Assembly (NCBI GenBank): GCA_964390045.1
Contig: CAYMGP010000009.1
Location: 183 to 64,182, forward strand
Direction of reading: 5' to 3'
Source: an uncultured Spirochaetaceae bacterium
GTDB taxonomy: Bacteria; Spirochaetota; Spirochaetia; SZUA-6; DRHE01
Length of the DNA: 64,000 nt
Below, one piece after another: positions 919 through 59,999 of the stretch. A model generated the notes under the pieces. That model ran no database searches. It worked only from the letters and a program-made list of their open reading frames with translations, and had not been told where the DNA came from. A program made the translations under genes and the position numbers. Position 1 is the first letter of the stretch. Each line of letters begins with the position of its first letter.

Positions 919-1012
919 TTGATAATCCTCCGTATTTCAAAATACATCTGACAATACGGCAATGTGCGGGCCGTGGTCAACGCACAGGCCGCGGTCAGCG
1001 GGCTGAACGGGC

Positions 1013-1999: not shown

Positions 2000-2146
2000 A
2001 ATCTTTCTGAGTGTACATTGAAGCAGGCGGCGGGGAGAAGCGTCCGTTTCACCTGACGGGAGGCAATGCAGAGGGCACGGAGTCATGGAGAGATTTATTT
2101 GATTTGTTTGGTAAGGATAGTTAAATTTCCTAAGAGAACGGCAACG

Positions 2147-13365: not shown

Positions 13366-13380
13366 GGTGGGTGACACAAG

Positions 13381-14565: not shown

Positions 14566-14606
14566 ACCTTGTAAATTAAAGGATAAGCATTAATTTTACA
14601 AGGTAT
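14564..14606. promoter_or_regulatory. 12-bp inverted repeat overlapping the start codon and promoter of the AAA gene
   Basis: ATACCTTGTAAA-N19-TTTACAAGGTAT. Confidence 0.6.
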
Positions 14607-14644
14607 TAAATCGAAACACTCGAGAAAGCTGGGTTGAAACGGAT

Positions 14645-15577: not shown

Positions 15578-15612
15578 TGCATACCTTCCTTGTTTTCTTT
15601 GTCCCGGCACAC

Positions 15613-16701
15613 TCAGCCGTTTTTCTCCAGCCCGGAGCAGATTTCCAGGAAATCCCTTACCCTGTCGTCCGGAGTGGAAGCGTCTACATCGGCCATGACG
15701 ATGTCGCAGGGGGCTAAATGTCTGTGTATCTTTTCCATTTCTGCCCTTATTTCTATAAGCGAGCCTTCGCGCAGGGTCACGGGAGAGTACATTATGGCCC
15801 GGCGTGTATCGGGAAACATTTCTCTGACTCTCGATAGATCGGACATGATCCCCATATCCAGATATCCCAGCTTGGGAAGCTCAGCCAGCACCTCCACGTA
15901 GGGAGTAACATCCCAGTTGCAGGTATGCACACCGAAACGCTCGAAGGCGAGGGCAATTTCCCTATCATGGGGGAAGACGAACTCGCGGTAGGCTTGCGGG
16001 GAAATCATGTTCATCACGCAATTGCTGACACTCATCTGGTCGATATAGAACCCCGAGGTCCGCTGGCGTTCCTGGACCGAGTGAGCCAGCCGGATCATCA
16101 CCTCGGTGATCACGGAGAAAAAGTGGTGCGCAAAATCCGGCCTGTCGTACAGATCGAGGAAGATCTCCTCTCCGCGCAGATTGAAGGCATTGTTCAGCAC
16201 GCCCTGCCAGTTGAGGTAGCCGTGTATCTTGCCCCACTCCTTTTCGATCAGCTCCATCTGGCGCAGTATTTCCTCCACAACGGGGCTCTGCAGGACGGAA
16301 TCCGGCTCCAGAGACTCGATCTCCCCAATCCCGAGCCGGTGCTGCGGATTCAAATCGGGCCAACGATCGGGTGCGTATTCGAGAGGCATCCCAAAAACGT
16401 GGGGAATAGGATAAGCCCCGTAGAGCCCCGAAATCGTTGCCAGGTCGTCCCTGTTCTCCAATTTCCAGTAGGGGATCGTGGGAAAGGCACGGATCAGCTC
16501 CGCCTTCATCGTTTCCAAAGCTCGGTAGCGGGTGCGGGGATCCCGGTGCCACCGTTCGCTGAAATCCACCCCGCAGCGTCGCTGGTACCAGGCCGGCACG
16601 AAGCCGAGAGAAACCCGCATGGCCGACTCTGTTCCGTCGGCCGGCTCTCTCCTGGCCGGACCGGATATGGGGATATGGTTTCTAAGCTTCAGGACAGCCA
16701 A
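15613..16701 (-). CDS. UroD/MtaA-superfamily protein
   Basis: LNNAFNLRGEE..DLYD.P, MISP..YREF..P and HTC motifs; GGAGG before the TTG at 16701. Confidence 0.7.
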   Translation of the reverse strand: MAVLKLRNHIPISGPARREPADGTESAMRVSLGFVPAWYQRRCGVDFSERWHRDPRTRYRALETMKAELIRAFPTIPYWKLENRDDLATISGLYGAYPIPHVFGMPLEYAPDRWPDLNPQHRLGIGEIESLEPDSVLQSPVVEEILRQMELIEKEWGKIHGYLNWQGVLNNAFNLRGEEIFLDLYDRPDFAHHFFSVITEVMIRLAHSVQERQRTSGFYIDQMSVSNCVMNMISPQAYREFVFPHDREIALAFERFGVHTCNWDVTPYVEVLAELPKLGYLDMGIMSDLSRVREMFPDTRRAIMYSPVTLREGSLIEIRAEMEKIHRHLAPCDIVMADVDASTPDDRVRDFLEICSGLEKNG

Positions 16702-45481: not shown

Positions 45482-46822
45482 CTACGAGATATTCATCAGG
45501 GCCGACTCGGCGGCATTCACGAACTGATACACCACGGGAGAGGCCGTCAGGGCGGGATGGGTACCCATCTGAAAGCAAGCGATGTCATCGATGGTCATCT
45601 TGTGCTGTATACAGGCGCTGGCCGTATTGATCAGCTCGCCGACCGCATGGTCGCCCATCATCTGTGTACCAATCAGTACCTTTGTGCGTCTCTCGAAGAT
45701 CAGCTTGACCCGTTGTATGGCCATGCCGGGCATCTTGCCCGGGTGACGGTTCGGCCCTTCTGCCACGCCCGTGATCACGTCGTAGCCCTGACGCTTGGCT
45801 AAGGCTTCCTGCATTCCGGCCACGGCGAAGCTGCGGTCGCCCAGAGCGGAGGAGAACACGCCGATCGTACCTACGCTTTCCCTCTGGATTCCGTAAAGGT
45901 TGGCGCCGGCGATGCGGGCCTCGGAGCAGGCTATCGAAGCTAACTTCAGCTTGGAGGGCATGCCTCCAAAGAAGGAGAACTTTTCGGCACAGTCTCCACA
46001 GGAGAAGATGTTCTCGTCGCTGGTGCGCATGGTGCGATCCACCCAGATCGAGCCGGTGGGACCCAGACGCAGGCCTGCCTGTTTGGCCAGATCGATATTA
46101 GCCACGGTACCGATGCCTATGATCACCATGTCGGCTTCGATCACAGTGCCGTCGGCGAACTTCACTCCGGTAGCTTTGGTGTTGCCCTCGATCGAAGCCA
46201 CTTTCTGCTCAACCAGGACTTTGACACCCCGCTCGCGCAGCAGCTTCTCCGCTTCTGTGCAGAATTCGGGATCGAAAGCCAGCTGCAGGCAGTGGGGCAG
46301 CAGCTCGCAGATCGTAACTTCCTTGCCTTCGATTTTGTTGATTTCGTCGGAGACTTCCACGCCGATGAAACCGCCTCCAATCACCGCCACCCGTTTGACA
46401 GTGCTCATGAACTGCTGCATCTTGGTCAGGTGATCGACATCCTTGTACACAGGGTAGACGTTCTCTTTGTCGAAGCCGGGAATCGGCGGCATCATAGGCG
46501 ACGAACCGGTAGCCAGTACCAGTTTGTCGTAGCCGACTTGCTCTCCGGAATCTGTCTTTACAGTTTTTTTCTCCCTGTCGACCTCTACAACCGTGTCGAG
46601 CATCAGCTCCACGTTGTTTTTCTCCAAGGGAGTATCCGGCATCAGGTTGTTCTGTGGAGTTCCCACTGTTCCAAATACGTAGGGAATACCGCAGGGAATG
46701 GGAACCAGCTTCTCCTTGCGTATTAATAGAATGCTCTTATCCGGGTAACGTCTGCGCGCCGTTAACGCGGCTGTAAGCCCGGCCGCACTCCCCCCAATGA
46801 TCAGTACGTCTGATCGTTTCAT
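45482..46822 (-). CDS. FAD-dependent CoA-disulfide reductase / NADH oxidase family
   Basis: GGSAAG, CGIPY redox Cys, ATGS, GGGFIGVE and GDC motifs. Confidence 0.9.
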   Translation of the reverse strand: MKRSDVLIIGGSAAGLTAALTARRRYPDKSILLIRKEKLVPIPCGIPYVFGTVGTPQNNLMPDTPLEKNNVELMLDTVVEVDREKKTVKTDSGEQVGYDKLVLATGSSPMMPPIPGFDKENVYPVYKDVDHLTKMQQFMSTVKRVAVIGGGFIGVEVSDEINKIEGKEVTICELLPHCLQLAFDPEFCTEAEKLLRERGVKVLVEQKVASIEGNTKATGVKFADGTVIEADMVIIGIGTVANIDLAKQAGLRLGPTGSIWVDRTMRTSDENIFSCGDCAEKFSFFGGMPSKLKLASIACSEARIAGANLYGIQRESVGTIGVFSSALGDRSFAVAGMQEALAKRQGYDVITGVAEGPNRHPGKMPGMAIQRVKLIFERRTKVLIGTQMMGDHAVGELINTASACIQHKMTIDDIACFQMGTHPALTASPVVYQFVNAAESALMNIS

Positions 46823-46869
46823 AAAAAAATCCTCCTGCCTGTTGTTATTTGGGTATAAAGGTGCGACTT

Positions 46870-46923
46870 ATTATAGTGAGAATATTCTCGTTTTGCAAGT
46901 GAAAATCGAGAAATTTTTCACAT
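46870..46923 (-). promoter_or_regulatory. Sigma70 promoter with palindromic, Rex-like operator(s)
   Basis: TTGCAA(46898-46893)-N17-TATAAT(46875-46870); GAGAATATTCTC in the spacer; TCGAGAA-N4-TTCACAT at 46906-46923. Confidence 0.6.
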
Positions 46924-46937
46924 TCTCCTGATTTACT

Positions 46938-48042
46938 CTACATGAGGATTTTTGCCACCTCGGCCGTACTGAGGAAGTTCATCACCAGCGGCTGGGACAG
47001 GCCTTTCTGAGACTGCATCCAGAGGGCGTAGATACCCCTGTCTGTCTGCAGGGTCGATACATAGCGGCTGCTGCCCGTACCGTACGGCGAAACAAAGAGA
47101 GGCGGGTTGATCGAAAGCCGCCGCAGGCGGGGGAACTGCTCCGCCGTCGAGAAGGCCAGCCCGCCGATCTCTTCGCAGGCGTATCCTCGGGGTCGTTTGA
47201 CGGCTTTGTTGTGCTCTGCGTGGCGCCGCACCGACTCCCCTCCGTCGTAGAAAAAAAGGAAGGTGTCGGGCAGATCTTTGAACAAGCCCAGCTTGGGCAC
47301 CTTGAGCGCGTCGGTGAGGCGGGTGATGGCCACGTCCCAGGTGAAGCCCCGGGGAAAGAAGGTGTAGTCGAGCCGGCCATACTCCTCAGCGTTTTTGGGC
47401 CTGAGGCAGAGGGCCGGGTTGGCGCTGGACCAGTTGAAGGGATGGGTGCAGACGATCAACACGGTGTTTCCCGAAGCATCTTCGAACACGAAAGGGTCTT
47501 TGAGGTGGCAGCAGCGGCTGGATAGCGGCTGGATCGAGGGCTTCGATCGACCCGGCTTCTATACGGTCGATTGTCCAGACGCCTGTTCCCGGCTTCCTGA
47601 AGTCTTCCAGTCCCTCGGGATAAGGGATGCCGCTCTTTTCACTGGAGATGTAGAGCTCGATCCCGCCCCTATAATGGTGCAGCCAGGCCCGTTCGATGGA
47701 AAGGACCTGCTGGTTCCCGTGGCTGAGGTCTTGCTTGGAAAAGCTGAGGGTTTTCTCGAATCGCTTGCCCCCGTCATCGGACCTGAACACGGCCAGCTCG
47801 AAGCCCCGTACGCCTGCTCCGACACCGGTTCGCGAATCCCCCTGATTGCGGTAGCGGCCGCAGAGGTAGAGTCTGCCCCGGCTGTCTTCGATCATGTTGC
47901 CGGCGCCGAACCAGTATCCGGATCTCGCTTGGGTGGGAGGGATCAGAACGCGCGCCCTATGCTGATCGATCAGCTTCAGAGCGAATCTTCTCAATCTGTC
48001 TTTGAGCTCCGCGGGAAAATCGTTCACCAATCCTTCTTTCAT
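46938..48042 (-). pseudogene. Beta-propeller glycosidase/sialidase-like protein, frameshifted near 47508
   Basis: GYWFGAG..RYRN, Asp-box SDDGG..F and SIER in one frame; HLKDPFV..SRYV..W.QSQ in another frame. Confidence 0.6.
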
Positions 48043-48164
48043 TATTCTTCGCGCTGAGAACGATCTATTGTATTTTCTGCAAGGACTTTTTACTAGCTGT
48101 ATAATGAAATGCGGAGAAGAATATTGATTTCGAAGTCAGAATCCAGGCCCGGGAGCCCGAACTT

Positions 48165-50909
48165 CTACGCCCGGGCTTTAGTCCGCCTGGCTTTCCCTTT
48201 GCTCTCGGTTCCGATCTTCCGAATGCGTACGGCGCAGACCTTGTACTCAGGGATCTTGGCCACGGGATCGAGGGCGTCGTTTGTCAGGATGTTGGCCGCC
48301 GCCTCCCTGTAGTGGAACGTCATGAAGATCGAGCCGGGACGGGAGCGCTCGGTAACCACGGTCTTGGCCCTCACCGTACCGCGGCGCGACGTTACCTCAG
48401 CTGGCTCGCCGTGCTCGAGACCGAGCTTGCCGGCGTCCTGCGGATGGATTTCGAAGAATCCGTCGGGGCGAATGGCATCGAGCCCGTCGACCCGCCGGCT
48501 CATCGTGCCGGTGTGGAAATGATAGAGTATCCGGCCCGTGGTCAGCAGGTAGGGGTAGTCTCTGTCAGGTTCCTCCGCCGGTGGAATGTACTCCACGGCG
48601 TTGAAAAGGCCCTTGCCCCTGGAGAACATGCCCTTATGAAGGTAGGTCGTGCCCGAATGCTTGTCGTCCGGGCAGGGCCACTGCAGGCCCGTTTCCTGCA
48701 GGCGGCTGTGATGGATGCCGCCGTATATCGGGGCCAGGCCGGCGATCTCGTCCATGATCTCGGCGCTGCTCCTGTAGCTCATAGGGTAGCCGAGACGGGA
48801 TGATACCTCCCCGAGGATCTGCCAATCCGGCTTGGCCTCTCCGGGAGGATCGAGGACCCGGCGCAGCAGCTGCACGCGCCTTTCCGTGTTGGTAAAGGTG
48901 CCGTCCTTCTCGGCGAAGCTGGCCGCCGGAAACACAACGTCGGCGTATTGAGCGGTCTCGGATAGGAAAATGTCCTGGCAGACGAGGAACTCGAGAGCCT
49001 CGAGGTCCTTCTTGACGCGGTTGACATTGGGATCACTCAGGAAAGGATTCTCGCCCATCATGTACATGGCCCGGATCGAGCCGTCCTCCGCACCGTGAAG
49101 CATCTCCACCACGGTAATTCCCGGGGTGGGAGACAGCGAAGCCTGCCAGGCCTTTTCGAATTTCTCCTGAACCTGCGGGTTGGCCACCTGTTGGTAGCCG
49201 GGGTAGACATTGGGAAGGGCACCGAGATCGCAGGCTCCCTGTACATTGTTCTGTCCGCGCAGGGGATTGACTCCCGTGGATTTTTTACCCACGTTGCCGG
49301 TGAGCATGGCCATGTTGGCCAGGGAAAGGACATTGTCCGTTCCGGTTGTGTGCTGGGTGATGCCCATGCTGTAAATGATCGAGGCGGCTCCCGCGCGGGC
49401 ATAGAGCCGGGCGGCCTGGACGATTTTCTCTTTGGGAACGCCGGTGATCTTCTTCACCTTTTCCGGAGTGTACTGCATCACTACGGATTTAAACTTTTCG
49501 AAGTCTTCGGTGCGCTGCTTAATAAATTCGCTATCCTCCAGCCCCTCGCTCAGGATCACATGCATCATGCCGTTGAACAGGGCCACGTCGGTACCGGAGC
49601 GCTGACGGAGGTGCAGGGTGGAGAAACGCACCAGGTCGATTTGCCTGGGGTCCGCCACGATGAGGGTAGCTCCGTTCTTCTTGACGGCGGCCTTGATCTC
49701 CAGGGCGATGATCGGATGGGCTTCGGTTGTATTGCTTCCCGTTACAAAGATGCAGTCGGCAAAACGAAGCTCGGTGATCGAGTTGGTCATGGCACCGCTT
49801 CCGAAGGCCTTGGCCAGACCGGCTACCGTGGAGGAGTGGCACAGCCGGGCGCAGTGGTCTACATTATTGGTACCCAGACCGGCGCGCATGAATTTCTGAA
49901 AGACGTAGTTCTCTTCATTTGTACATTTTGCGCTCGAGAGGCCCGCGATGACGTTGGGACCGTGTTTTTCCTTTATCTCCCGCAGGCGCTTGGCAACCAG
50001 ATCGAGGGCTTTGTCCCAGGTGGTCTGCTCGAACTTGCCGTTCTTCTTTACCAGGGGATGGGTGAGGCGTTCCGGGTGATTTATATAGTAGGTGCCGAAC
50101 TTGCCCTTTACGCAGAGGTTCCCCCTGCTTACCGTGCCTTTGGCGGGCGTCGTGACCTTGACCAGCTTGCCGTCTTTTGTATGCATCTCCAGGGTGCAGC
50201 CGCAGCCGCAGTAGGGGCAGATCGTTGCCGTGGTCTCGAACTCCCACTCACGTCCTTTTTTCACCCGCTCTCTCTCCATCAACGCTCCCACGGGGCAGAC
50301 GCTGATACAGCGCCCGCAGAACTCACAGGTCGTTTCCTGAAGAGGCCTGCCGAAGGCGGTGGAGATGTGGGCCTTGAAGCCCCGATCGGCGTAGTCGATG
50401 GCGTTGTCGAACTGCAGCTCGGCGCAGGCTAAAACGCAGCGTCCGCAGGTAATACACTTGTTGTAGTCCCGCACGATGAAGGGATTCTCATCGAGTATCG
50501 GAAAGGAGCTCTTGGCCCGATGCTCCCCTGTGAATATCGATTCACTGATGCCGAACTCATACGCATATTTCTCCAGCTGGCAGTCCCCGCTCTTCTCGCA
50601 GGTGATGCAGGAGATGTCGTGGTCGGAGAGGATCAGCTCCAGGTTCATCCTGCGGGCTTTTTTCACCCTCTCGCTGTTGGTGTGTACCACCATACCTTCG
50701 CGCGCCGGATAGCTGCACGAGGAGGGAAGGTTCTTCACACCCTCGACCTCCACGACGCACAGCCGGCAGGAGCTCAAGGGGGGGAGGTCCTCGTTGTAGC
50801 AGAGATGGGGAATCTCGATTCCCGCGGCCTTGGCCGCCCAATATACGGTCACGCCCGGCTGGACCTGAACCTGTTTTCCATCGATTGTCAGCGTCACTAA
50901 CTCTCTCAT
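48165..50909 (-). CDS. fdhF: Mo/W-bisPGD formate dehydrogenase alpha subunit with N-terminal FeS domains (Cys, not Sec)
   Basis: [2Fe-2S] and [4Fe-4S] motifs, CPYCGCGC, HCARLCHSS (TGC codon), PLRGQNNVQG and PEYK. Confidence 0.95.
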   Translation of the reverse strand: MRELVTLTIDGKQVQVQPGVTVYWAAKAAGIEIPHLCYNEDLPPLSSCRLCVVEVEGVKNLPSSCSYPAREGMVVHTNSERVKKARRMNLELILSDHDISCITCEKSGDCQLEKYAYEFGISESIFTGEHRAKSSFPILDENPFIVRDYNKCITCGRCVLACAELQFDNAIDYADRGFKAHISTAFGRPLQETTCEFCGRCISVCPVGALMERERVKKGREWEFETTATICPYCGCGCTLEMHTKDGKLVKVTTPAKGTVSRGNLCVKGKFGTYYINHPERLTHPLVKKNGKFEQTTWDKALDLVAKRLREIKEKHGPNVIAGLSSAKCTNEENYVFQKFMRAGLGTNNVDHCARLCHSSTVAGLAKAFGSGAMTNSITELRFADCIFVTGSNTTEAHPIIALEIKAAVKKNGATLIVADPRQIDLVRFSTLHLRQRSGTDVALFNGMMHVILSEGLEDSEFIKQRTEDFEKFKSVVMQYTPEKVKKITGVPKEKIVQAARLYARAGAASIIYSMGITQHTTGTDNVLSLANMAMLTGNVGKKSTGVNPLRGQNNVQGACDLGALPNVYPGYQQVANPQVQEKFEKAWQASLSPTPGITVVEMLHGAEDGSIRAMYMMGENPFLSDPNVNRVKKDLEALEFLVCQDIFLSETAQYADVVFPAASFAEKDGTFTNTERRVQLLRRVLDPPGEAKPDWQILGEVSSRLGYPMSYRSSAEIMDEIAGLAPIYGGIHHSRLQETGLQWPCPDDKHSGTTYLHKGMFSRGKGLFNAVEYIPPAEEPDRDYPYLLTTGRILYHFHTGTMSRRVDGLDAIRPDGFFEIHPQDAGKLGLEHGEPAEVTSRRGTVRAKTVVTERSRPGSIFMTFHYREAAANILTNDALDPVAKIPEYKVCAVRIRKIGTESKGKARRTKARA

Positions 50910-50924
50910 CTTGTAAAAAAACCT

Positions 50925-52781
50925 CTATTCTAGTGAGATGGCATCGAAACGGCAGGTGTTGTAGCACATGCCGCACTTGATACACTTCTCCTGGGCAATG
51001 ATGTGCACTTCTTTCTTCTGCCCCGTGATGGCATCGGAAGGGCAGACCTTCAAACAGGCGCCGCAGCCTGTACATTTGTCTGCAATGATCTCGTAGCGGA
51101 TCAGGGATTTGCAGACGCCGGCCGGACATTTGCCCTCTTCTATATGAGCAAGGTACTCATCCCTGAAGTATTTCAAGGTGGTGAGCACGGGATTGGGAGC
51201 GGTCTGTCCGAGGCCGCAGAGGGCGCTGTCCTTGATCGTATAGGCCAGCTCGCCGAGAAGCTCGAGATCCTCTACGCTGCCCCGGCCCTCGCAGACGTCG
51301 ATCAGAATTTCCAGCATGCGCTTGGTCCCGACTCGGCAGGGAACACATTTTCCGCAGGATTCATCCTGGATGAAGTCCATGAAGAAGCGCGAGATGTCCA
51401 CCATACAGGTCCGGTCGTCGGCAACGATCATACCGCCGGATCCCATGATAGCTCCCACCTCCGCCAGGGATTCGTAGTCTACAGGCAGATCGAGGTGCTC
51501 CTCGGGGATGCAGCCTCCCGAAGGTCCGCCTGTCTGAATGGCTTTGAACGCCCGTCCGTCGGGGATTCCCCCGCCTACCGCGAACACAACGTCCTTGAGG
51601 GTGATTCCCATCGGCACTTCTACCAATCCCGTGTTGTTGACCTTGCCGGCCAGGGCAAAAACCTTGGTTCCCTTGCTCTTCTCTGTACCTATTTTTGAAT
51701 ACCAAGAGCCGCCATTGTTGATGATCACAGGTATATTGGCCAGGGTTTCCACGTTGTTTATACAGGTGGGCTTTCCCCAGATTCCGGACTGCACGGGAAA
51801 AGGCGGCCGCGGTCGGGGCATGCCCCGTTTTCCCTCCAAGGAGGCGATCAGTGCCGTCTCCTCGCCGCAGACAAAGGCTCCCGAGCCCTTTTTGATCTTG
51901 ATGCGGAGGGAGAACCCGCTCCCCAGGATGTTGTCTCCCAGAAAACCCATCTGCTCGGCGTCCTTCAAGGCTTTTTTCAGGTGCTCTACGGCGATGGGGT
52001 ACTCTGCCCGTACATAGACGAAACCGACAGAGGCGCCGATCGCATAGGCGGCGATGGTCATGCCCTCGATGGCTGTGTGGGGGTCTCCTTCGAGCACGGC
52101 CCGGTCCATGAAGGCTCCCGGGTCTCCCTCGTCGGCGTTGCAGACCATGTATTTCGTGTCTCCCTGCGCCGCCCTAGCGAAGCTCCACTTGCGTCCCGTG
52201 GGGAAGCCAGCCCCACCGCGCCCGCGCAGGCCCGACATGGTAACCTCTTCGACGACCTGTTCGGCGGTCATCTCGCCTAGGACCCGGGCCAGGGCCGAAT
52301 ACCCGTTTCTCTCTATGTAGTGGAGGATGTTCTTGGGATCGATCTCCCCACAGTTGCGCAGTACGATCTTCTTCTGATTCTTGTAAAAGGGGATGTCCCG
52401 GGCGTGAACGATCTTCTCGCCGCTGGCGGGATCCTGATAGAGCAGCCTTTCAACGGGTTTGCCCTGTTCTATCGTTTCGCTCACGATCTCCGCTACGTCC
52501 TCGGGACGGATACCGCCGTAGAAGATGTCGTAGGGATCCACGACCAGAACAGGGGCCTGGGCGCAGAAGCCGTGGCATCCGGTGGCAACGATCTGCACGG
52601 GAATCTTTCTCTTGCCGATCTCGGCCTCGAAGGCTTTCAGCACCTCCTCGGCGCCGTGGGCTCTACAGCCTGTCATACAGATGCGTACCCGTACTGCCTC
52701 GCTGTCGCGCCGGCTCTTCAGATCTTCCTGCAGTTTGTGCAGGTCTTCTGGACTCGAGATGGTTTGTGGACTCTGCTGCAT
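50925..52781 (-). CDS. NuoF/HydB-like flavin subunit
   Basis: N-terminal Trx-like [2Fe-2S], LRGRGGAGF, NADEGDPGAFMD, GEET, GGPSGG, ESCGKC..C and C-terminal 2x[4Fe-4S]. Confidence 0.92.
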   Translation of the reverse strand: MQQSPQTISSPEDLHKLQEDLKSRRDSEAVRVRICMTGCRAHGAEEVLKAFEAEIGKRKIPVQIVATGCHGFCAQAPVLVVDPYDIFYGGIRPEDVAEIVSETIEQGKPVERLLYQDPASGEKIVHARDIPFYKNQKKIVLRNCGEIDPKNILHYIERNGYSALARVLGEMTAEQVVEEVTMSGLRGRGGAGFPTGRKWSFARAAQGDTKYMVCNADEGDPGAFMDRAVLEGDPHTAIEGMTIAAYAIGASVGFVYVRAEYPIAVEHLKKALKDAEQMGFLGDNILGSGFSLRIKIKKGSGAFVCGEETALIASLEGKRGMPRPRPPFPVQSGIWGKPTCINNVETLANIPVIINNGGSWYSKIGTEKSKGTKVFALAGKVNNTGLVEVPMGITLKDVVFAVGGGIPDGRAFKAIQTGGPSGGCIPEEHLDLPVDYESLAEVGAIMGSGGMIVADDRTCMVDISRFFMDFIQDESCGKCVPCRVGTKRMLEILIDVCEGRGSVEDLELLGELAYTIKDSALCGLGQTAPNPVLTTLKYFRDEYLAHIEEGKCPAGVCKSLIRYEIIADKCTGCGACLKVCPSDAITGQKKEVHIIAQEKCIKCGMCYNTCRFDAISLE

Positions 52782-52803
52782 GGTTACTCCATCCGTTGGG
52801 GAA

Positions 52804-53289
52804 CTACAACGGGTTCCCCTCTTGATAACTCTTTATTATTTTTCTCACCTTGGTGCGTGTAAGCTTGCCGTAGTACTTGTCGCCGATCATCATCACCGGA
52901 GCGAGGAAGCAGGTACCCAGGCAGCGGACCACTTCAAGGCTGAACAGGCGGTCTTTCGTGGTTTTCTCGTTTTCCAGGCCGAGAAACGATCGGATCTCGT
53001 CGAGCACCATCTGGCCGCCGCGGATATGACAGGCTGTTCCCAAGCACATCTTGATGATGTGTTTGCCTCTCGGTGTGAGAGAGAACTGGGAATAGAAGCT
53101 GATCACTCCGTATATATGGCTGAGAGGCACGTTGAGGTGCCTGCCTACATCCTCGAGAGCTTCGACGGGCAGGTAGCCGACCTCTTCCTGTATATCCTGA
53201 AGCAGCGGCATCAAGACATCCTGTCCGTCCTCTCCCGGGTAACGTTCCAAGAGATACGCGATGTCTGGTTCGGTAGTCTTTACACCCAT
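52804..53289 (-). CDS. NuoE/HydC-like [2Fe-2S] subunit
   Basis: CLGTAC...CLGTC..APV motif. Confidence 0.92.
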   Translation of the reverse strand: MGVKTTEPDIAYLLERYPGEDGQDVLMPLLQDIQEEVGYLPVEALEDVGRHLNVPLSHIYGVISFYSQFSLTPRGKHIIKMCLGTACHIRGGQMVLDEIRSFLGLENEKTTKDRLFSLEVVRCLGTCFLAPVMMIGDKYYGKLTRTKVRKIIKSYQEGNPL

Positions 53290-53307
53290 GAGATTGCCCT
53301 TCTGTTG

Positions 53308-54615
53308 TTATTTTGAAACGCCCGGTCCGGTTGGACCCTGCCCGGAAGGCCTCAGATAAGCGCTCCAGTAGCTCATGCCTACGAATACGGCACCGCCGAT
53401 AATGTTGCCTATGGTGACGGGGAGCAGGTTCCTCCAGAGGAAGCTAATCCAGCTCAGAGATCCGGCCGTGAAAGCGCCCGGTGCGGCAACCCCTCCCCAG
53501 GCTCTTAGAAAAAGGCCCGTGGGAATGAAGTACATGTTGGCCACGGAGTGTTCGAAGCCGAGGGCTACGAAACCCATGATCGGAAAGAAAATGGCGAAGA
53601 TCTTGCCGATTGTCTGGCGGGCGGCCAAAGCCATCCATACAGCAAGACAAACAAGCCAGTTACAGCCCACTCCCCGCAGCAGGGCTTGGATGAAGCTCAG
53701 GTTCACCTTGCCGTAGGCTATCTTCACAGCCGCCGCCCCCAGCGCGCCGTCGCTGAGCTTCCAAAGGCCGGAGAAAACGAACAGCAGAGCGATCAGGATC
53801 GAGCCTATTAAGTTCGCCACGTACACCAGGCCCCAGCGCTCCAGCATCCTGCCGAAGGTGATCTCACGTGCTATGGCGCTGGAAATCATCAGATTGTTGC
53901 CCGTAAAAAGCTCGGCACCGGCTATGATGACAAGCATCAGGCCGAGGCTGAACACCGAGCCTGTCATGAACTTCGTGAAGCCTACCCCGAGATGGGAAGC
54001 CATGTCGAAGGAAACGGTTGTGGCCAGCATGCCGCCGAAACCGATGTAAGCTCCCGCCAGGATACCGAGAACAAGCACTGACAGCCAGGGAGAGGTCGTT
54101 TTGCCCACTCCTACTTTCTGGGCCACGGTCTCGGCGATTGTCTTGGGCGATTTGTCCTCGATGCTGGGCACGGGGAAGGTGAGGGAACGCACGATCTTTT
54201 CCACCTCCACGGCCCCTTTTGCTTTCTGATGCTCTTTGCGCTTGATCGCTTTCTGCACGGCGATGAGGATCTCCTCCGGAGTGAAGGGCTTGGCAACGTA
54301 GTCAACGGCGCCGCGCTTCAGGGCCTCCGTGGCTCTTTCCACCGCAGGATATCCGGTTATCATCACGATCGCCGAATCCGGGCAGCGTTTATCGATCATC
54401 TCCACGGCGTCGATTCCGTTGAGCTCGGGCATGCGCCAGTCGCAGAGAATCACATCGAACCGTGTCTCGGAGGCCAGCTCTAGACCTTTGCGGGCGCTGT
54501 CTGTGGTCACCACCTGGTAGCCTTCGCTGCCGAAAATGCGCTGGCATGATTCCAGAACAATGTCCTCATCATCTATGACCAGCATGTTGCGGATATTTTT
54601 CTCCGTATCACTCAT
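53308..54615 (-). CDS. Response-regulator receiver fused to a formate/nitrite (FNT) channel
   Basis: REC: IDDE, CDWRMP, ITGY, AKPF. FNT: AGAYIG, ELFTGN, CNWLVCLA, FEHSVANM, GNIIGG. Confidence 0.9.
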   Translation of the reverse strand: MSDTEKNIRNMLVIDDEDIVLESCQRIFGSEGYQVVTTDSARKGLELASETRFDVILCDWRMPELNGIDAVEMIDKRCPDSAIVMITGYPAVERATEALKRGAVDYVAKPFTPEEILIAVQKAIKRKEHQKAKGAVEVEKIVRSLTFPVPSIEDKSPKTIAETVAQKVGVGKTTSPWLSVLVLGILAGAYIGFGGMLATTVSFDMASHLGVGFTKFMTGSVFSLGLMLVIIAGAELFTGNNLMISSAIAREITFGRMLERWGLVYVANLIGSILIALLFVFSGLWKLSDGALGAAAVKIAYGKVNLSFIQALLRGVGCNWLVCLAVWMALAARQTIGKIFAIFFPIMGFVALGFEHSVANMYFIPTGLFLRAWGGVAAPGAFTAGSLSWISFLWRNLLPVTIGNIIGGAVFVGMSYWSAYLRPSGQGPTGPGVSK

Positions 54616-54640
54616 ATCAACAGTCCTCGTTTTATGGTTT

Positions 54641-55267
54641 TTACCAGATCTCGGCGCTGAGCCGGCTTTCCAGCCAGCGCTTCTGTTCAGGAGTCAGGGC
54701 ACCGATCTGGTTTTCTATCCAATGGATATCGCCTGTAAGGATCGCCAGTTTTTCAGGGCCTGTAAGATCGTAATCCTGGAGGGCATCGGCCCCGTAGTAG
54801 AACAGGCTGGCTACGAACTGGCTGTCCACGGCTGCTCTTTCCAGCACCCGGATCACCTCGTCCTTGTGGATCAGCTCCTGCTTTTCCGGCTCTTCCTTGG
54901 CTGCTTTTTCCAGGGCTTTCCTGACGCTTGTCACCAGCATGTCCGGGGTGAAAGGTTTTTCTACGTAGTCCGCCGCCCCAAGCTTCATCGCCTGGACCGC
55001 GCTCTGCACGGTGGCGTAGCCTGTGAAGATCACAATGGGCACAGCCGGCTTGGAGCGCTTGATATCCCGTAGTATCCGCATTCCGCCGATTTCAGGCATG
55101 CGGATATCTGTCAGAACCAGATCGTATTGCCGGTTCATGGCCCAGTCCAGTCCCTCGCGGCTGGAGATGGCCGTATCGATATCGAAGTTCTCGGCTGTAA
55201 GAATTTTTTTGACGCTGTCCAGCACAATCTGTTCATCGTCGATTACAAGAACTTTTTTTCTCTCCAT
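54641..55267 (-). CDS. Receiver domain plus a ~75-aa C-terminal helical domain of unknown function
   Basis: IDDE, TDIRMP, FTGY and EKPF motifs; no HTH recognisable. Confidence 0.85.
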   Translation of the reverse strand: MERKKVLVIDDEQIVLDSVKKILTAENFDIDTAISSREGLDWAMNRQYDLVLTDIRMPEIGGMRILRDIKRSKPAVPIVIFTGYATVQSAVQAMKLGAADYVEKPFTPDMLVTSVRKALEKAAKEEPEKQELIHKDEVIRVLERAAVDSQFVASLFYYGADALQDYDLTGPEKLAILTGDIHWIENQIGALTPEQKRWLESRLSAEIW

Positions 55268-55288
55268 ACCATACCTGCTCTTTTTCTT

Positions 55289-55654
55289 TTATCTGCTTTG
55301 CTCGAGGGCTCTGTCCACTGCATCTATCAGCTCATCCGGTGTGAACGGCTTGGCTATGAAATGGGTGGCGCCCATGCGCATCCCGCTAGATATCGTCTCC
55401 GGAGTAGGGTAGCCGCTCATTACTAGAATGGGTAGATCAGGCCGTCGCTCTTTTACGTTTGCTATGAGATACATGCCATCATACTCAGGCATAATCACAT
55501 CGACAAGTAGTAGATTGAAATTTTCCGCCTCCAGGGCTTGAAGCGCTGTCTTTGCTGTCGAGGTGATGGTTGCCGCGTACCCCTCGGCTTCAAGGATACG
55601 TCTACAGCTCGACAGTACCACCGGGTCATCGTCGACCACGAGGATCTTCTTCAA
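55289..55654 (-). CDS. Stand-alone response regulator receiver
   Basis: VDDD, VDVIMP, MSGY and AKPF motifs; TTG start overlaps the kinase stop codon. Confidence 0.9.
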   Translation of the reverse strand: MKKILVVDDDPVVLSSCRRILEAEGYAATITSTAKTALQALEAENFNLLLVDVIMPEYDGMYLIANVKERRPDLPILVMSGYPTPETISSGMRMGATHFIAKPFTPDELIDAVDRALEQSR

Positions 55655-57588
55655 TATTCGTCCTCCAGAGGCAGCCAGATCGTGAAGATGCTTCCCTTGC
55701 CCTCGGTACTCTGTACTCGAATCGCCCCGTGGTGGCGCTCGACGATTCCCTGGGATACCGACAGCCCCAGACCTGTTCCCGCCCCCACCTCTTTTGTGGT
55801 GAAGAACGGATCGAAGAGCTTGTCCAGATGCTCGGCGGGAATACCGCAGCCTGTGTCGGAAATCTCGATCTCTATTCCCTTGCTCTCCTCGGGTCCGGCC
55901 GAGTAGACCAGGCGGGAGTAGATGTTTATATGCCCGCCCTTGTCCGTTGCATCGATCGAGTTGAGTATGATATTGAGCAGCACACTCTGAAACCGACCGC
56001 GGTCGAGGGTGCGCATGGGGATGTCTTTCCCCGCATCGAAGCAGAAGATCACGCCTTTTACCAGTGCCTGGTTCTCGACCAGAGGAATCGTCTTTTCGAT
56101 CAGGTCGTTGATATCCGTAGGCTCCGGCTCGATCTTGGTCTGCCGGGAGAAATCCAGCAGGCCTTTGACGATTCGCCGCACCCTTTCGGTGGCATCGGCG
56201 ATCGTCTGCAGGTCCTGGCGTATTTCCTCGCTCAGGTCCTCCCGGCGCAGAAGCATGTGGGTGAAGGTGAGCACCCCCGTCAATGGGTTGTTGATCTCGT
56301 GGGCTACACCGGCCGCCAGCCTGCCCACGGAGGCCTGCTTTTCCGACTGCAGCAGTTTGAGCTCGCTCTCCGCCCGCTGAGAACGGTCCCGCTCACGCAG
56401 AGAGGAAAGCATCTCCTGAAATGTCTTCTGAAGCACGCCGATCTCGGCGGTTGATATCGGGCCGATTTCAGGAGACAGATCACCTGCCGATACGCGGCGG
56501 CTGACGTCGATCAGCCTGTGCACGGGCTCGAGAATCCTTTGCCCTAGGATGTAGCCGAGCACGACGGCCAGCACCATGCCGGCTGCCGTGATCAGAATAA
56601 AAACGAGCAGCGTGCTGCGCCGGATATTAACGTACTTGGCCTCGAGCACACCTACGTAGAGGATACCCACCCGCTTATCGTAAATATCGACGATGGGCTC
56701 ATAAGCCGTTATATACCAGTCATTGACGACGAAGGCCCTGTCGGTCCAGCGCTCACCCTCGCCCAGCACCTTGTTCCTCACCTCTTCGGACACCCGGGTT
56801 CCGATTGCCCGCTCGCCGCGAGCCGTCATGACGTTGGTGGAGACGCGCAGATCGTTGAAGAAGATCGTGGCTGTGCCGATGTTCTGTCCACGGTACTCCT
56901 CTTCCCTGAATACAGTTTCCCGTACCCTGTCCACGATTTGCTCGCTCCTGTTCAACAGCACTCCCCCGTACAGGACTCCTATCAAAGTGTTGCCCTCGAA
57001 CAGCGGCACGGCGCAGGAGATCGTCATTCCCGAGGTCTCCTCTGTTTCCGCACGGGGAGCCGCCCGGGGTGTGGGAACGATCTCGATCCGGGCCCTCTCG
57101 GCCAGGGCTCCATCCTCCGCGGCCAGGGTTTCCCTTTCCAGAATCACGGTACCTGAAACTGTGTTTTTCCTATCGAGGCAGAGCAGGGCCGCGGGATTGC
57201 CGGCGGCAGCCGGCAGATCGCCTCCGGCGGCCGGCAGGCCTAGGCGTACCCTGGTTATACCGCCGGCATCTACATAACCGGCGAAATCCATATGCAGCTT
57301 TCCGGCGAGCAGCCGCAGCCTGTCGGCCATATATTCCGAGTTTCCGAGTTTGGCCGCCTGGAGACATCCCTGCTCCTGACAGGCTATCTGCAGAGCTAAA
57401 CGCAGCCGGGTCTCCACATCGTTGTAGATCTCCCTGGCGGCGTTCAGGTCAAGGCGAATACGATTTGTCGCTTCATTGAGCACGGTTCTATTGATCAGCC
57501 CGACGCCGACAATGAGAGAGAGGCCGCCCACCAGGATGCAAACGCCGAGGAAGCTCGATATCAACCGAAAACGGGTCGTGTAGATCAC
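55651..57588 (-). CDS. Cache-HAMP sensor histidine kinase (NtrB-like HisKA)
   Basis: TM-periplasmic-TM, ATIF..RVSTNV..RAIGT Cache segment, AHEINNPL, N box, DTGCG, FDPFFTTK and GTGLGL motifs. Confidence 0.92.
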   Translation of the reverse strand: MIYTTRFRLISSFLGVCILVGGLSLIVGVGLINRTVLNEATNRIRLDLNAAREIYNDVETRLRLALQIACQEQGCLQAAKLGNSEYMADRLRLLAGKLHMDFAGYVDAGGITRVRLGLPAAGGDLPAAAGNPAALLCLDRKNTVSGTVILERETLAAEDGALAERARIEIVPTPRAAPRAETEETSGMTISCAVPLFEGNTLIGVLYGGVLLNRSEQIVDRVRETVFREEEYRGQNIGTATIFFNDLRVSTNVMTARGERAIGTRVSEEVRNKVLGEGERWTDRAFVVNDWYITAYEPIVDIYDKRVGILYVGVLEAKYVNIRRSTLLVFILITAAGMVLAVVLGYILGQRILEPVHRLIDVSRRVSAGDLSPEIGPISTAEIGVLQKTFQEMLSSLRERDRSQRAESELKLLQSEKQASVGRLAAGVAHEINNPLTGVLTFTHMLLRREDLSEEIRQDLQTIADATERVRRIVKGLLDFSRQTKIEPEPTDINDLIEKTIPLVENQALVKGVIFCFDAGKDIPMRTLDRGRFQSVLLNIILNSIDATDKGGHINIYSRLVYSAGPEESKGIEIEISDTGCGIPAEHLDKLFDPFFTTKEVGAGTGLGLSVSQGIVERHHGAIRVQSTEGKGSIFTIWLPLEDEY

Positions 57589-57741
57589 AATCTGGCGATA
57601 CGATAGATCGGATGGTTTTGCCCTGTCAAGGAGAGCCGGAGCCAAGTGAATCGGAGCCGAGGTTTGTTCCTGGTGGCCGATCCACCTTTCAAGATGGTAC
57701 ATTATCAAGTATGCAATCCGGTTGCGGGAGTGGAGTAGTAT

Positions 57742-58371
57742 TTGAACGCAAAGTATCCTGATCTGGCGGCTTTGATCCTTGCCGGCGGGCGCAACACGCG
57801 CATGGGAGGGATGGAAAAAAGTCGTATTGCAGTCAACGGGACTCCACTTGTACACAGCATCGCCTCGCTGCTTCAAGATTTATTTTCCGAAGTGATTTTG
57901 GTGACAAACAGACCGGATCTGCACAGGGATCTTGCCGGCCAGCTGATCATCAGCGAGGACATCTACAGGGAACGCGGACCTCTCGGGGGCATCCATACAG
58001 GATTGGCCCGCACGAGCAAAGAAGCCCTGTTCTGTGTGGCCTGCGACATGCCTTCGCTCGATCCTGAGCTCATCGAACGTGAGATCGAACATTTCTTGAG
58101 CCTTCCCCGGGAACAGTGCGATGCCCTGATACCACGCGTGGGCGAGTTGATCGAGCCCCTCCACGCCGTATACCGCCGGCGCCTGGAATCCCTGGCCCGG
58201 GAGATACTGCTCGGCGAAAGAGGGTATTCGGTGCGGGTACTGCTCGACAAGGCGCGGACCTGCTACCTGGATCTCCATGCGGCACCGGAGGTTGCCAGGG
58301 CGTTTTTCAATCTCAACACTCCGAAAGACATCCATTTGCACCTGGATGCCGGGAGGCAGGGAGGCAGCTGA
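57742..58371 (+). CDS. mobA: Molybdenum cofactor guanylyltransferase
   Basis: LAGG..RMG..K, GPLGGI, ACDMP, EPLHA.Y and N.NT motifs. Confidence 0.92.
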   Translation: MNAKYPDLAALILAGGRNTRMGGMEKSRIAVNGTPLVHSIASLLQDLFSEVILVTNRPDLHRDLAGQLIISEDIYRERGPLGGIHTGLARTSKEALFCVACDMPSLDPELIEREIEHFLSLPREQCDALIPRVGELIEPLHAVYRRRLESLAREILLGERGYSVRVLLDKARTCYLDLHAAPEVARAFFNLNTPKDIHLHLDAGRQGGS

Positions 58372-58373
58372 CC

Positions 58374-59168
58374 GTGCGTAGCTTGAAGATCATTCGTGTT
58401 CGCGACGGGAAGTGGGAAACCCTGGAAGATCTGATTACCGAGGAGATTTCCCTCGCCCTGCTCGCCGAGCATCGCCGGATCGCCGTGCTCATGTGCTCGC
58501 CCTCAGACCTGGAAGACCTGGTGACCGGTTTTTTCTATACAAATGGATTCATTCAGAGGGCCGATCAGATCCGCCGGATTGTGATCAACAGGGCGAATTG
58601 GACAGCCTTCATCGAGCTGGCTCCGGAGATCGATGTAGAGCGGCTGCGCCCCGGCGGCATAATAGGTTCAGCCTGCGGCGACGGTCACGGCCTGCCGGAA
58701 CGACGGCACCAGGCCGCCGGGGGTGAAGAAAGGCGGGACGCAGCGAGGGGTTCTGTGAGCTCCCGGCTCATCATCGATCTCATGGATAGTTTTCGAAAAC
58801 GCTCGAAAATTCATCGAAAAACAGGAGGTGTTCACGCCGCCGCGATTGCCTCGGCGGCGGATCTGCTCGTTTTTCGAGAAGATATAGGCAGGCATAATGC
58901 GGTAGACAAGGTGATCGGCGCCTGTCTGGCCGAAGACTGCCCGTTTGAAGACAAGATCCTGCTGACCAGCGGCAGACTCTCCTCGGAAATTATATACAAA
59001 GCAGATGCCTGCCGCCTGCCCATTATTGTTTCCCGCAGCGCCCCCACGGATCGAAGTATATCCCTGGCCAGGGACAGAGATATCACTCTGGTTGGCTTTG
59101 CCAGAGGGCGTCGCCTAAACATCTATTCGGCATCTAGACGGCTGTTCGAAGCGGACCGCAGGCTTTGA
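58374..59168 (+). CDS. fdhD: Formate dehydrogenase accessory sulfurtransferase
   Basis: MCSP, TGGVH.A, EDIGRHNAVDK and SGR.S motifs. Confidence 0.92.
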   Translation: MRSLKIIRVRDGKWETLEDLITEEISLALLAEHRRIAVLMCSPSDLEDLVTGFFYTNGFIQRADQIRRIVINRANWTAFIELAPEIDVERLRPGGIIGSACGDGHGLPERRHQAAGGEERRDAARGSVSSRLIIDLMDSFRKRSKIHRKTGGVHAAAIASAADLLVFREDIGRHNAVDKVIGACLAEDCPFEDKILLTSGRLSSEIIYKADACRLPIIVSRSAPTDRSISLARDRDITLVGFARGRRLNIYSASRRLFEADRRL

Positions 59169-59203
59169 GGCTCGCTTGAAGCTGGCTGCGCCCCTGCTCC
59201 TAT

Positions 59204-59233
59204 TTGACTCATTTTGTAATGATGCTGTATACT
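59204..59233 (+). promoter_or_regulatory. Sigma70-type promoter, probably leaderless, for cooC
   Basis: TTGACT-N18-TATACT, 7 nt before the GTG at 59241. Confidence 0.55.
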
Positions 59234-59240
59234 GAGTGCC

Positions 59241-59999
59241 GTGAAAATCGCACTTACAGGAAAAGGGGGTGTGGGCAAGAGCACCCTCGCAGCAATGATT
59301 GCTCGGGTCGTTCGGGATCAGAGCAACAAAGTCGTGGTCATCGATGCCGATCCGGATATGAACCTGGCCACAATATTCGATGTTTCCCAGAACATCGAAA
59401 TCACTCCGATCGTAGAGATGAAGGAACTGATCGCCGAGCGTACCGGTACAAAGGTCGGCGAGCCGGCTCCGTTCTTCACTATGAATCCCAAGGTAAGCGA
59501 TCTGCCTGAGAAGTACTGGGTCGACAAAAACGGCGTCAAGCTGCTCGTCATGGGAACGGTACAGAGCGGCGGAGGCGGCTGCGCCTGCCCGGAGAATGCT
59601 TTTTTAAAGAGTCTTCTCGGCCATATGATGATTGCCCGTCAGGAGTGGGTTATTCTCGACATGGAGGCGGGTATCGAGCATCTCGGCCGTGGCACCGCCT
59701 TGGGTGTGGACTATATGCTGGTGGTCGTCGAGCCGAACAGGACCAGCACCGAAACGGCCCACCGCATTCAGAAGCTGGCCCATGATATAAACATCAAGAA
59801 GGTCCTGGTTGTGGGCAACAAGATCCAGAAACAGGAAGAAGAGGAGTTTATCCGCGAAGCCTGTCAAGGCCTTGAGGTGCTTGGATTTCTGCGGCTTTCC
59901 GAGCAGGTTCGACAGGTCAGCACCGGCGAGATTTCTCTGGAAGAAATTGGCGGGGATTTCCTCGAGCAGGTGAAAAAGCTGGTCGAGCGCCTGTCGTAA
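59241..59999 (+). CDS. cooC: CO dehydrogenase nickel-insertion ATPase
   Basis: GKGGVGKST, DADP, GCAC and DMEAGIEHLGRG motifs. Confidence 0.92.
   Translation: MKIALTGKGGVGKSTLAAMIARVVRDQSNKVVVIDADPDMNLATIFDVSQNIEITPIVEMKELIAERTGTKVGEPAPFFTMNPKVSDLPEKYWVDKNGVKLLVMGTVQSGGGGCACPENAFLKSLLGHMMIARQEWVILDMEAGIEHLGRGTALGVDYMLVVVEPNRTSTETAHRIQKLAHDINIKKVLVVGNKIQKQEEEEFIREACQGLEVLGFLRLSEQVRQVSTGEISLEEIGGDFLEQVKKLVERLS

Follow-up and report, generated by a model that had tools for sequence, protein, structure and literature searches.

Can a two-component system act on a membrane channel itself, without a transcription step in between? This question is raised by a single gene (53308..54615, minus strand) in a stretch of 64,000 nucleotides from contig CAYMGP010000009.1 of an uncultured Spirochaetaceae bacterium, which we refer to throughout as the window. 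The gene encodes a protein of 435 residues in which a response-regulator receiver domain (REC) precedes a channel domain that belongs to the FNT (formate/nitrite transporter) family. An earlier note, made from the letters of the window, had described the gene as one uninterrupted frame with a complete REC and a complete FNT, had placed it between a kinase and response-regulator cluster and the genes of a formate dehydrogenase (FDH), and had proposed that the kinase opens or closes formate flux directly. We followed up these claims computationally. The fusion is genuine, conserved and the last gene of a recurrent cassette, and REC and FNT domains have also been joined in the opposite order. That the adjacent kinase exerts direct phospho-control over a FocA-like formate channel is, in our judgement, somewhat more probable than its opposite.

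A receiver and a FocA-like channel in one reading frame

The frame of the fusion gene opens with ATG and runs to its end without an internal stop; the plus-strand reading of the same interval contains many stops. Both domain matches (see the table) lie well above the Pfam cut-offs, which are 30.2 bits for Response_reg (PF00072) and 34.6 bits for Form_Nir_trans (PF01226). Every motif that the earlier note had named was found in the translation: the acidic pair D15-D16, the phospho-acceptor D59, T87 and K109-P110 in the receiver, and T238 and H356 in the pore. The position that it gave to the gene also held, with the kinase and two REC proteins upstream and NuoE-like, NuoF-like and FdhA subunits downstream. 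The fusion passes the family-level NCBIfam model TIGR00790 (fnt) with 251.5 bits against a cut-off of 232.3. The closest solved structure for the FNT part is that of Escherichia coli FocA (3kcu, E 2e-49), and the FocA structures of E. coli, Salmonella and Vibrio (3kcu, 3q7k, 3kly) all fall between 2e-49 and 5e-48. Next among the classes of solved relatives comes the bicarbonate-related LCIA (9v2a, E 1.8e-42), and other FNT structures matched much more weakly (NirC, 1e-29; the hydrosulfide channel HSC, 4e-29).

In the alignment with FocA, residues 163-424 of the fusion pair with FocA residues 17-282, and T238 and H356 pair with FocA T91 and H209. The alignment starts, at FocA residue 17, within the cytoplasmic N-terminal segment of FocA. 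PMC11841067 reports that the helix at FocA's N-terminus binds the partner protein PflB, that FocA is gated by PflB through this cytoplasmic N-terminus, and that removal of the helix disrupts translocation. The fusion shares with FocA the pore Thr and His and a counterpart of the N-terminal helix, but its N-terminus is not free: it continues, through a conserved connector, into a receiver of 125 residues. Moreover, the fusion gene does not lie beside pflB, and the single gene of the genome that resembles pyruvate formate-lyase (PFL) is on another contig. On the receiver side, the domain together with its long alpha5 helix resembles the receivers of NtrC1- and DctD-type proteins (1zy2 over residues 10-140, 4l4u over residues 9-146). 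Read from its domains, the fusion can be taken as an FNT channel to which a two-component switch has been added or, viewed the other way, as a response regulator whose output is a channel.

Such a protein might be an assembly or frameshift artefact, or the product of a decaying gene with a dead receiver, and some relatives are indeed broken or split: one copy carries a single in-frame TAA (genome G030, C338:2566-3855), another lies in two frames with a TAG (G014, C44:6334-7591) and a third is divided between contigs (G019). Against this explanation, independent contigs cross the REC-FNT junction without an indel. A contig of 1267 nt from run X3 is identical to the window over 53389-54655, with no gap, and one of 2104 nt from run X5, which belongs to a different study, differs from it over 53536-55639 by 9 substitutions, likewise with no gap. 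In a collection of 5.8 billion proteins, both Pfam domains were present in 119 of the 120 best clusters listed, the exception being a protein of 346 residues. Among 41 related genomes, 13 carry an intact full-length frame, 1 has an in-frame TAA and 3 are partial or split. A probe spanning the junction, run against a sample of 401 genomes of the phylum, found full-length matches in 15 genomes besides that of the window and a partial match in 1 more; 27 genomes of this sample have a plain FNT only. A search of one genome per species found the full-length fusion at 16 loci, all in metagenome-assembled genomes (MAGs) and distributed over five phylum-level groups (by label, Spirochaetaceae/Spirochaetales 4, Deltaproteobacteria/Thermodesulfobacteriota lineages 8, Acidobacteriota 2, Planctomycetota 1 and Myxococcota 1). 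Taken with the invariance of the phospho-acceptor residues described below, these data refute both artefact and decay, to which we assign a negligible probability. The doubts voiced in the earlier note, that the fusion might be an artefact or a singleton, are thereby set aside.

At 50% clustering, the N-terminal fusion forms only four full-length clusters (P0121, P0122, P0123 and P0125) among the best 150 matches; the family is therefore populous but compact. A further record of 344 residues (P0124), which combines a REC, half an FNT and a match to Por_Secre_tail, probably stems from a chimeric contig. In their sources these proteins are named only 'formate/nitrite transporter (family protein)' or 'formate transporter', and there is no cultured strain among the records examined; both domains and their fusion are already visible in public databases, under automatic names only. 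The runs that hold the stretch are labelled as marine sediment, estuary and marsh metagenomes. One of them, X13, holds pieces of the gene only; its library is labelled metatranscriptomic and is flagged 'probably DNA'. In the window's genome, which is 91% complete, the fusion is the sole FNT found.

Conservation was measured on 93 aligned fusion proteins, 90 of them with 66% identity or more to the query and three with 43-48%, a set dominated by close relatives. D15, D16, D59, K109 and P110 are invariant in all 93. Position 87 is always T or S (T in 42 sequences, S in 51), and position 106 is always Y or F. In the pore, H356 and N240 are present in every sequence and T238 in 92. The mean frequency of the majority residue is 0.76 in the REC core and 0.82 in the FNT part; it is 0.49 in the alpha5 extension (126-146) and 0.84 in residues 147-177, where the segments 157-167 and 168-176 reach 0.87 and 0.88 and so score above every REC helix. 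Residues 147-177 carry the motif FPxPxxxDxxPKTIAETVA..GKTTSPW and include the counterpart of the FocA N-terminal helix. Judged by this pattern, the connector is not a loose linker, and REC, FNT and connector are all under selection. In the AlphaFold model of the monomer (mean predicted local distance difference test, pLDDT, 79.6; predicted template modelling score, pTM, 0.59) both domains are confidently folded, with confident helices over residues 177-421 (most 10-residue blocks at pLDDT 86-98) that correspond to the predicted membrane fold of the protomer. A connector that is conserved and structurally unassigned in the model is what would be expected of a segment contacting the pore mouth or a partner. 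A complex prediction of the REC part (1-135) against the FNT part (145-435) gave scores of 0.00 and 0.00, which speak neither for nor against docking.

The earlier note had also raised the possibility that subunits lacking REC are made from an in-frame GTG at 54192. This GTG and the GGAGGT upstream of it are present in the window, but they are not conserved in relatives. The codon at this position is GTC, a valine codon that is not a start, in eight relatives (L003-L009 and L012); it encodes Ala in two (L010, L013) and is ATG (Met) in six more distant ones (L016-L021). A Shine-Dalgarno-like word precedes the position only in the window and in L016. Since neither the start codon nor the ribosome-binding word is conserved, we rejected an internal start as a feature of the family, though it may exist in this organism; codon 142 is better read as a hydrophobic residue of the alpha5 extension.

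The kinase-receiver cassette and its sensor

Along the minus strand, the genes of the window follow each other in the order 153-aa open reading frame (ORF), histidine kinase, 121-aa REC, 208-aa REC protein, REC-FNT, NuoE-like, NuoF-like and FdhA, with fdhD divergent upstream. The intergenic gaps from the single-domain REC through FdhA measure 15-25 nt. We assessed the synteny of this arrangement by tblastn, with the window's proteins as queries and the 16 full-length loci as targets. All 16 have a Cache kinase next to the fusion, upstream on the same strand at 14 and divergent at the two loci from Planctomycetota and Myxococcota. At 14 of the 16 loci, the kinase is followed by a single-domain REC. 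The 208-aa regulator is present at 10, in two copies in L016, L018, L021 and L023, and is missing at 6 (L017, L019, L020, L022, L024 and L025), where kinase, single REC and REC-FNT are still there. Of the phylum-sample genomes with an intact fusion, 14 were included in both samples, and all of these show an sCache_3_3 match on the same contig and strand, some 2.3-2.7 kb upstream. REC-FNT closes a conserved cassette, in which it is preceded by a Cache kinase, a single-domain REC and zero to two proteins that join REC to a helical domain of unknown type. Because the downstream genes outside the spirochaetes are mutually unrelated, FNT is the only recognisable output domain in the cassette.

In a tree of 52 receiver domains, three kinds of receiver form separate clades: those borne by FNT (13 rows, branch value 99), the single-domain receivers (13 rows, 97) and those of the 208-aa regulators (11 rows, 94). 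The internal groupings of the three clades are similar, from which we conclude that the cassette travelled as a unit, also between phyla. The receivers of L026 and L027 group with their own 208-aa-type regulators (93).

The 208-aa regulator itself carries, C-terminal to its REC, a domain (about residues 125-208) with the motif L-T/S-x-x-E-K-L-A-I-L-T-G-D-x-x-W-I-E ... A-E-I-W and a model pLDDT of 91. This domain has no Pfam match at E <= 10, the PDB sequence matches of the regulator cover REC only, and no usable Atlas match was obtained; in a Foldseek search of the regulator against the PDB, the matches were driven by REC (TMq about 0.55). It looks like an undescribed output domain of response regulators. 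The N-terminal start of the kinase is uncertain, given that the alignment of most relatives begins only at about residue 92-100. The 153-aa ORF (P0274), which lies directly upstream of the kinase, has no Pfam match even at E <= 10; a 36% identical ORF occupies the equivalent position in L012. Scans of 46800-59600 returned 7 promoter-like sites (4.9 +/- 2.2 in shuffles) and 15 terminator-like sites (10.9 +/- 3.0 in shuffles), neither of which is informative, and Rfam gave no match in the window.

What does the kinase sense? Besides sCache_3_3, its sensor also matches Pfam Cache_3-Cache_2 (E 1e-19), and the only PDB sequence matches of its periplasmic region are 8PY0 (E 4.6e-4) and 8PY1 (E 0.011). 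PMC11804620 presents these two structures as chemoreceptor sCache domains crystallised with formate, in which the ligand is contacted by an Arg salt bridge and by hydrogen bonds from a Thr and a Tyr, and describes formate-type Cache domains as almost exclusive to chemoreceptors. We mapped the triad by its spacing in the 8PY0 chain (T, R 11 residues on, Y 49 residues after R). The formate-contact residues of 8PY0 align with T337, R344 and Y392 of the kinase. Across 19 kinases of REC/FNT loci, R and Y are present in all 19, and the Thr position holds T in 17 and S in 2. The sensor of the window kinase thus keeps the Thr/Arg/Tyr of the formate-binding Cache domains that PMC11804620 describes (PacF; R3 and R6, 8PY1 and 8PY0), but the match is weak and the domain sits here in a histidine kinase rather than in a chemoreceptor. 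By sequence, the triad is compatible with formate sensing and not diagnostic for it. The window's genome (G000) encodes a second sCache_3_3 protein of 477 residues on contig C12 (C12:191-1624, locus L173, minus strand); it shares the T/R/Y triad and is about 50% identical to the window kinase across the Cache region. No FNT lies beside it, and it ends early relative to the window kinase, which has 741 residues.

Formate dehydrogenase genes and separate joinings of REC and FNT

The genes that follow the fusion in the window encode the subunits of a cytoplasmic FDH (see the table). FdhA is the sole match to TIGR01591 above cut-off in the genome. In the NuoF-like subunit, the N-terminal part includes an extra thioredoxin-like 2Fe-2S segment (26-102) and the C-terminal part two 4Fe-4S motifs, a composition that resembles multimeric NAD-linked or bifurcating modules of FDH and hydrogenase. 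The true start of FdhD probably lies near 58356, where the alignment of its L012 relative, which begins at residue 81, would place it.

Features of the fusion gene, its cassette and the neighbouring genes in the window
Feature	Position	Strand	Remarks
REC-FNT fusion gene (P0001)	53308..54615	-	N-terminal receiver, conserved connector, FocA-like channel
Receiver domain, residues 12-120	54256..54582	-	Pfam Response_reg, E 4.6e-28, 98 bits
D59 phospho-acceptor codon	54439-54441	-	in CDWRMP
In-frame GTG, codon 142	54190..54192	-	GGAGGT at 54202-54207, nine bases upstream
Connector, residues 126-177	54085..54240	-	alpha5 extension 126-146, then conserved motif 147-177
FNT channel domain, residues 166-417	53365..54120	-	Pfam Form_Nir_trans, E 1.4e-81, 273.9 bits
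Pore Thr T238 codon	53902-53904	-	in LFTGN
Pore His H356 codon	53548-53550	-	in FEHS
Response regulator (P0271), 208 aa	54641..55267	-	REC and conserved C-terminal five-helix domain
Single-domain receiver (P0273), 121 aa	55289..55654	-	start overlaps kinase stop by 4 nt
Histidine kinase (P0272), 741 aa	55651..57876	-	two predicted transmembrane segments, periplasmic sCache_3_3, HAMP, HisKA, HATPase
sCache_3_3 module of kinase, residues 308-420	56617..56955	-	Pfam E 1.6e-30; carries T337, R344, Y392
Small ORF (P0274), 153 aa	57880..58341	-	directly upstream of kinase; cassette membership uncertain
NuoE-like 2Fe-2S subunit of cytoplasmic FDH	52804..53289	-	
NuoF-like FMN/NAD-binding subunit, 618 aa	50925..52781	-	
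FdhA, FDH alpha subunit with NuoG-like N-terminus	48165..50909	-	TIGR01591 885.9 bits, cut-off 666.25
FdhD, sulfur-transfer maturation factor	58116..59168	+	divergent; Pfam FdhD-NarQ at residues 109-343

Among the N-terminal fusions, FDH genes lie beside the fusion in spirochaete loci only, in varying orientation. In the other phyla, the first downstream genes encode a TonB plug protein, a DAO oxidoreductase, a porin, an MscS channel, an NMT1 protein and a sigma-54 regulator. Two neighbours in these phyla are of interest in their own right. In L022, an Acidobacteriota MAG, a PFL-like glycyl-radical enzyme is encoded two genes downstream of REC-FNT (13428-15848, plus strand), which recalls the enterobacterial focA-pflB pairing. 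In L027, a Myxococcota MAG, the gene directly downstream of REC-FNT (11971-14007, plus strand) encodes a histidine kinase whose sensor resembles the large subunit of [FeFe]-hydrogenase and has Fe-S motifs; this kinase may be a sensor of H2 or redox state beside the formate cassette. Unfused FNT relatives, presumably of FdhC type, also adjoin FdhA (L030, L031 and L033-L035), and FdhD was found at four of these five loci (not L035). The fusion shares their FdhA and FdhD company, but they have neither a receiver nor an adjacent kinase.

The two domains also occur in reversed order. In the protein P0131, the FNT (20-277) is followed by a C-terminal REC (307-414) that has the acidic pair, the Asp, a Ser and the Lys. 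A metagenome scan recovered full-length relatives of P0131 at 93-96% identity (L092, L093) and at about 50% identity (L094, L095, L096, L098, L101, L103 and L105). The neighbours of this family were scanned at five loci (L095, L096, L098, L099 and L101), and FDH subunits are adjacent at four of them: at L098 a NuoE/F fusion and FdhA come next, at L096 FdhA lies upstream, and L095 and L099 are described below; at L101 the single ORF scanned is not an FDH gene. In L095, the gene directly upstream of FNT-REC (285-2003, plus strand) encodes a NuoF-like subunit (Complex1_51K and NADH_4Fe-4S) that itself bears a C-terminal REC (453-568), so that the electron-input module of the FDH may itself be a two-component target. 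L099 shows a split form, in the order FdhA, FNT (309 aa), separate REC (126 aa), a kinase of sCache_3_3-HAMP-HisKA-HATPase architecture and a REC-kinase; L133 looks like L099, to judge by ORF sizes and the aligned kinase. This family and its split form thus combine the same two domains, the sCache_3_3 kinase and the FDH genes, and differ from the window's fusion in domain order. The link to FDH characterises the spirochaete loci and the C-terminal-REC family, not the cassette as a whole.

In the 52-domain tree, a single clade (98) unites the receivers that are C-terminal, stand-alone or borne by NuoF, at a distance from the N-terminal receivers; the FNTs that go with them sit in the other half of the FNT tree. 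The FNT domains were compared in a FastTree tree of 131 rows, from which 22 of the 150 listed proteins were left out as fragments or REC-only. Seven rows with an N-terminal REC form one clade there (96), and P0125, which also has an N-terminal REC, falls elsewhere, as do the forms with C-terminal REC, CBS and PilZ, in a tree that is poorly resolved (63 of 128 inner branches open). The reversed domain order, the different REC lineage and the different part of the FNT tree indicate that the C-terminal fusion arose in an independent joining event. On these comparisons, at least two independent events joined REC to FNT, one at the N-terminus and the other at the C-terminus, and REC, FNT, FDH and sCache_3_3 kinases were brought together at least twice. 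Other FNTs carry different C-terminal domains, namely CBS pairs in P0137 and P0148 and PilZ in P0179, which suggests nucleotide or cyclic di-GMP control of these FNTs. The occurrence of REC, CBS and PilZ on different FNTs indicates that cytoplasmic signal-receiving domains were added to FNTs repeatedly. In P0181, a DUF4389 domain stands N-terminal to the FNT.

A proposed path from receiver to pore

We propose that the fusion is a channel-type response regulator: a presumably pentameric, FocA-like formate channel (2175 residues) in which a receiver is covalently attached to the cytoplasmic N-terminal gating segment. The membrane kinase would sense a small extracytoplasmic ligand, probably formate, through its sCache_3_3 domain and would phosphorylate D59. 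The ensuing change at the alpha4-beta5-alpha5 face would be passed on through the alpha5 extension and the FPxP...PKTIAETVA segment, the counterpart of the N-terminal helix needed for FocA function, to the cytoplasmic pore mouth, and the pore would open, close or have its direction biased. Because an NAD-linked cytoplasmic FDH is encoded immediately downstream in this spirochaete, formate traffic to or from this enzyme would then be controlled post-translationally. In its fullest form the proposal describes a sense-and-gate cassette without a transcription step, in which external formate is both signal and cargo and the conductance or direction of a pentameric channel is switched within seconds; this stronger version is a tentative one, whose chances we put a little below even.

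What the analysis established is the architecture, its conservation, the synteny of the cassette and the independent fusions. A functional link between phosphorylation and the channel is likely, since the fusion is genuine and widespread, the receiver is intact in 93/93 sequences, a kinase is adjacent at 16/16 loci and REC and FNT were joined independently. This much of the earlier claim that the kinase directly opens or closes formate flux was supported. The part concerning formate did not extend to the whole cassette, in which the link to FDH is confined as described above, and phosphotransfer, the ligand, and the effect on transport with its sign (open, close or direction) are steps that we infer.

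Several observations weigh against direct phospho-control of a formate channel, and some of them concern the substrate, which, independently of how the receiver works, might be nitrite, hydrosulfide, bicarbonate, lactate or another small acid. The fusion reaches 229.9 bits with the FocA equivalog model TIGR04060 (cut-off 290.1) and 189.4 with NF008069, also a FocA equivalog (cut-off 440); by these models it is FocA-like and yet not filed as FocA, and LCIA is the next class of solved relative. Since FDH adjacency is limited to the spirochaete loci among the N-terminal fusions, with non-FDH neighbours elsewhere, the link to formate is weaker in other phyla. Nor does the Cache triad mark out kinases linked to an FNT: all 31 sCache_3_3 domains that were sampled in the phylum have it (30 TRY, 1 SRY), and for 26 of them no FNT link is known. 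Because domains such as these and the C12 paralogue share the triad, the ligand could be another small acid. On the other side, FocA is the best solved relative of the channel, with NirC and HSC far behind, and the fusion gene is wedged between the kinase genes and the FDH operon with gaps of 18-25 nt. The unfused relatives that adjoin FdhA and the four C-terminal-REC loci with adjacent FDH subunits also argue for formate. On this evidence a different substrate seems unlikely.

The remaining objections concern the mechanism. Gating by phosphorylation is pure inference; the AlphaFold model (pTM 0.59) falls below pLDDT 50 over residues 134-174 and offers no confident arrangement of the two domains; and one kinase faces three receiver proteins, so that the channel REC could be a secondary target or a phosphate sink. 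The signal might then run in reverse, the channel being a co-sensor or flux reporter whose REC, as a phosphate sink or competitor with an accessibility that depends on the transport state, tunes the other two receivers, notably the 208-aa regulator, and the real output lying elsewhere. Transporters that act as co-sensors of kinases are known, as in the case of BceAB with BceS and of DctA or DcuB, which talk to the kinase DcuS on its input side. The number of receiver proteins that follow one kinase, three here and up to four in L016, L018, L021 and L023, fits such a role, as do the conservation of the single-domain REC at 14/16 loci and the conserved, confidently folded C-terminal domain of the 208-aa regulator, which could be the true effector. 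However, that regulator is missing at 6/16 loci, which leaves FNT as the only output-like domain, and a sink role would explain neither the conservation of the connector at the level of the pore nor the presence of CBS and PilZ, which are ligand-binding regulators and not sinks, at the cytoplasmic end of other FNTs. We give the reversed signal a low probability. A phospho-dependent docking role for the receiver appears still more improbable. Here REC-REC contacts with the receivers of the cassette or with FDH would assemble or release a complex of channel and enzyme, comparable to PflB on FocA. Receivers of the NtrC1 and DctD type, to which the fusion is similar across the linker helix (1zy2, 4l4u), dimerise via that helix. 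The C-terminal REC on the NuoF-like subunit of L095 shares its lineage with the REC of the neighbouring FNT, and FocA needs PflB bound at its N-terminus, as PMC11841067 reports; but the NuoF-like subunit of the window is without a REC, and FDH genes are not adjacent at most non-spirochaete loci.

The fusion, for which we favour direct phospho-control of the channel, differs from known couplings of transport and signalling. In the CbrA 'transceptor', as it has been described, transport and two-component signalling are physically coupled as they are here, but there it is the kinase, on the input side, that carries the transporter, whereas in the fusion it is the receiver, on the output side, that carries the channel. 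The main text of the FNT family survey PMC5525234 makes no mention of a response regulator, receiver, fusion, additional domain or CBS. We found no description of a receiver-fused FNT in the literature searched, which did not cover the censuses of response-regulator output domains, where the architecture may be listed.

Formate is among the main currencies of interspecies electron transfer in anoxic sediments of the kind from which the stretch is known. How FNT channels are gated, and how they decide between export and import, is an open question that has been studied in E. coli through the N-terminus of FocA and PflB (PMC11841067). In the fusion a switchable signalling domain is attached at exactly the end at which FocA is gated, and a second family has a comparable addition at the other end. 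This offers an experimental handle, since D59A and D59E variants, beryllofluoride or the kinase could hold the channel in defined states. If the sense-and-gate form of the proposal is correct, the fusion would be the first response regulator with a membrane channel as its output domain, and would offer a natural parallel, open to genetics, to the way in which PflB gates FocA. Together with the related forms that have a REC at the other end, a REC on the NuoF-like subunit, or CBS or PilZ domains, it would then point to post-translational control of FNT channels as a general and overlooked principle.

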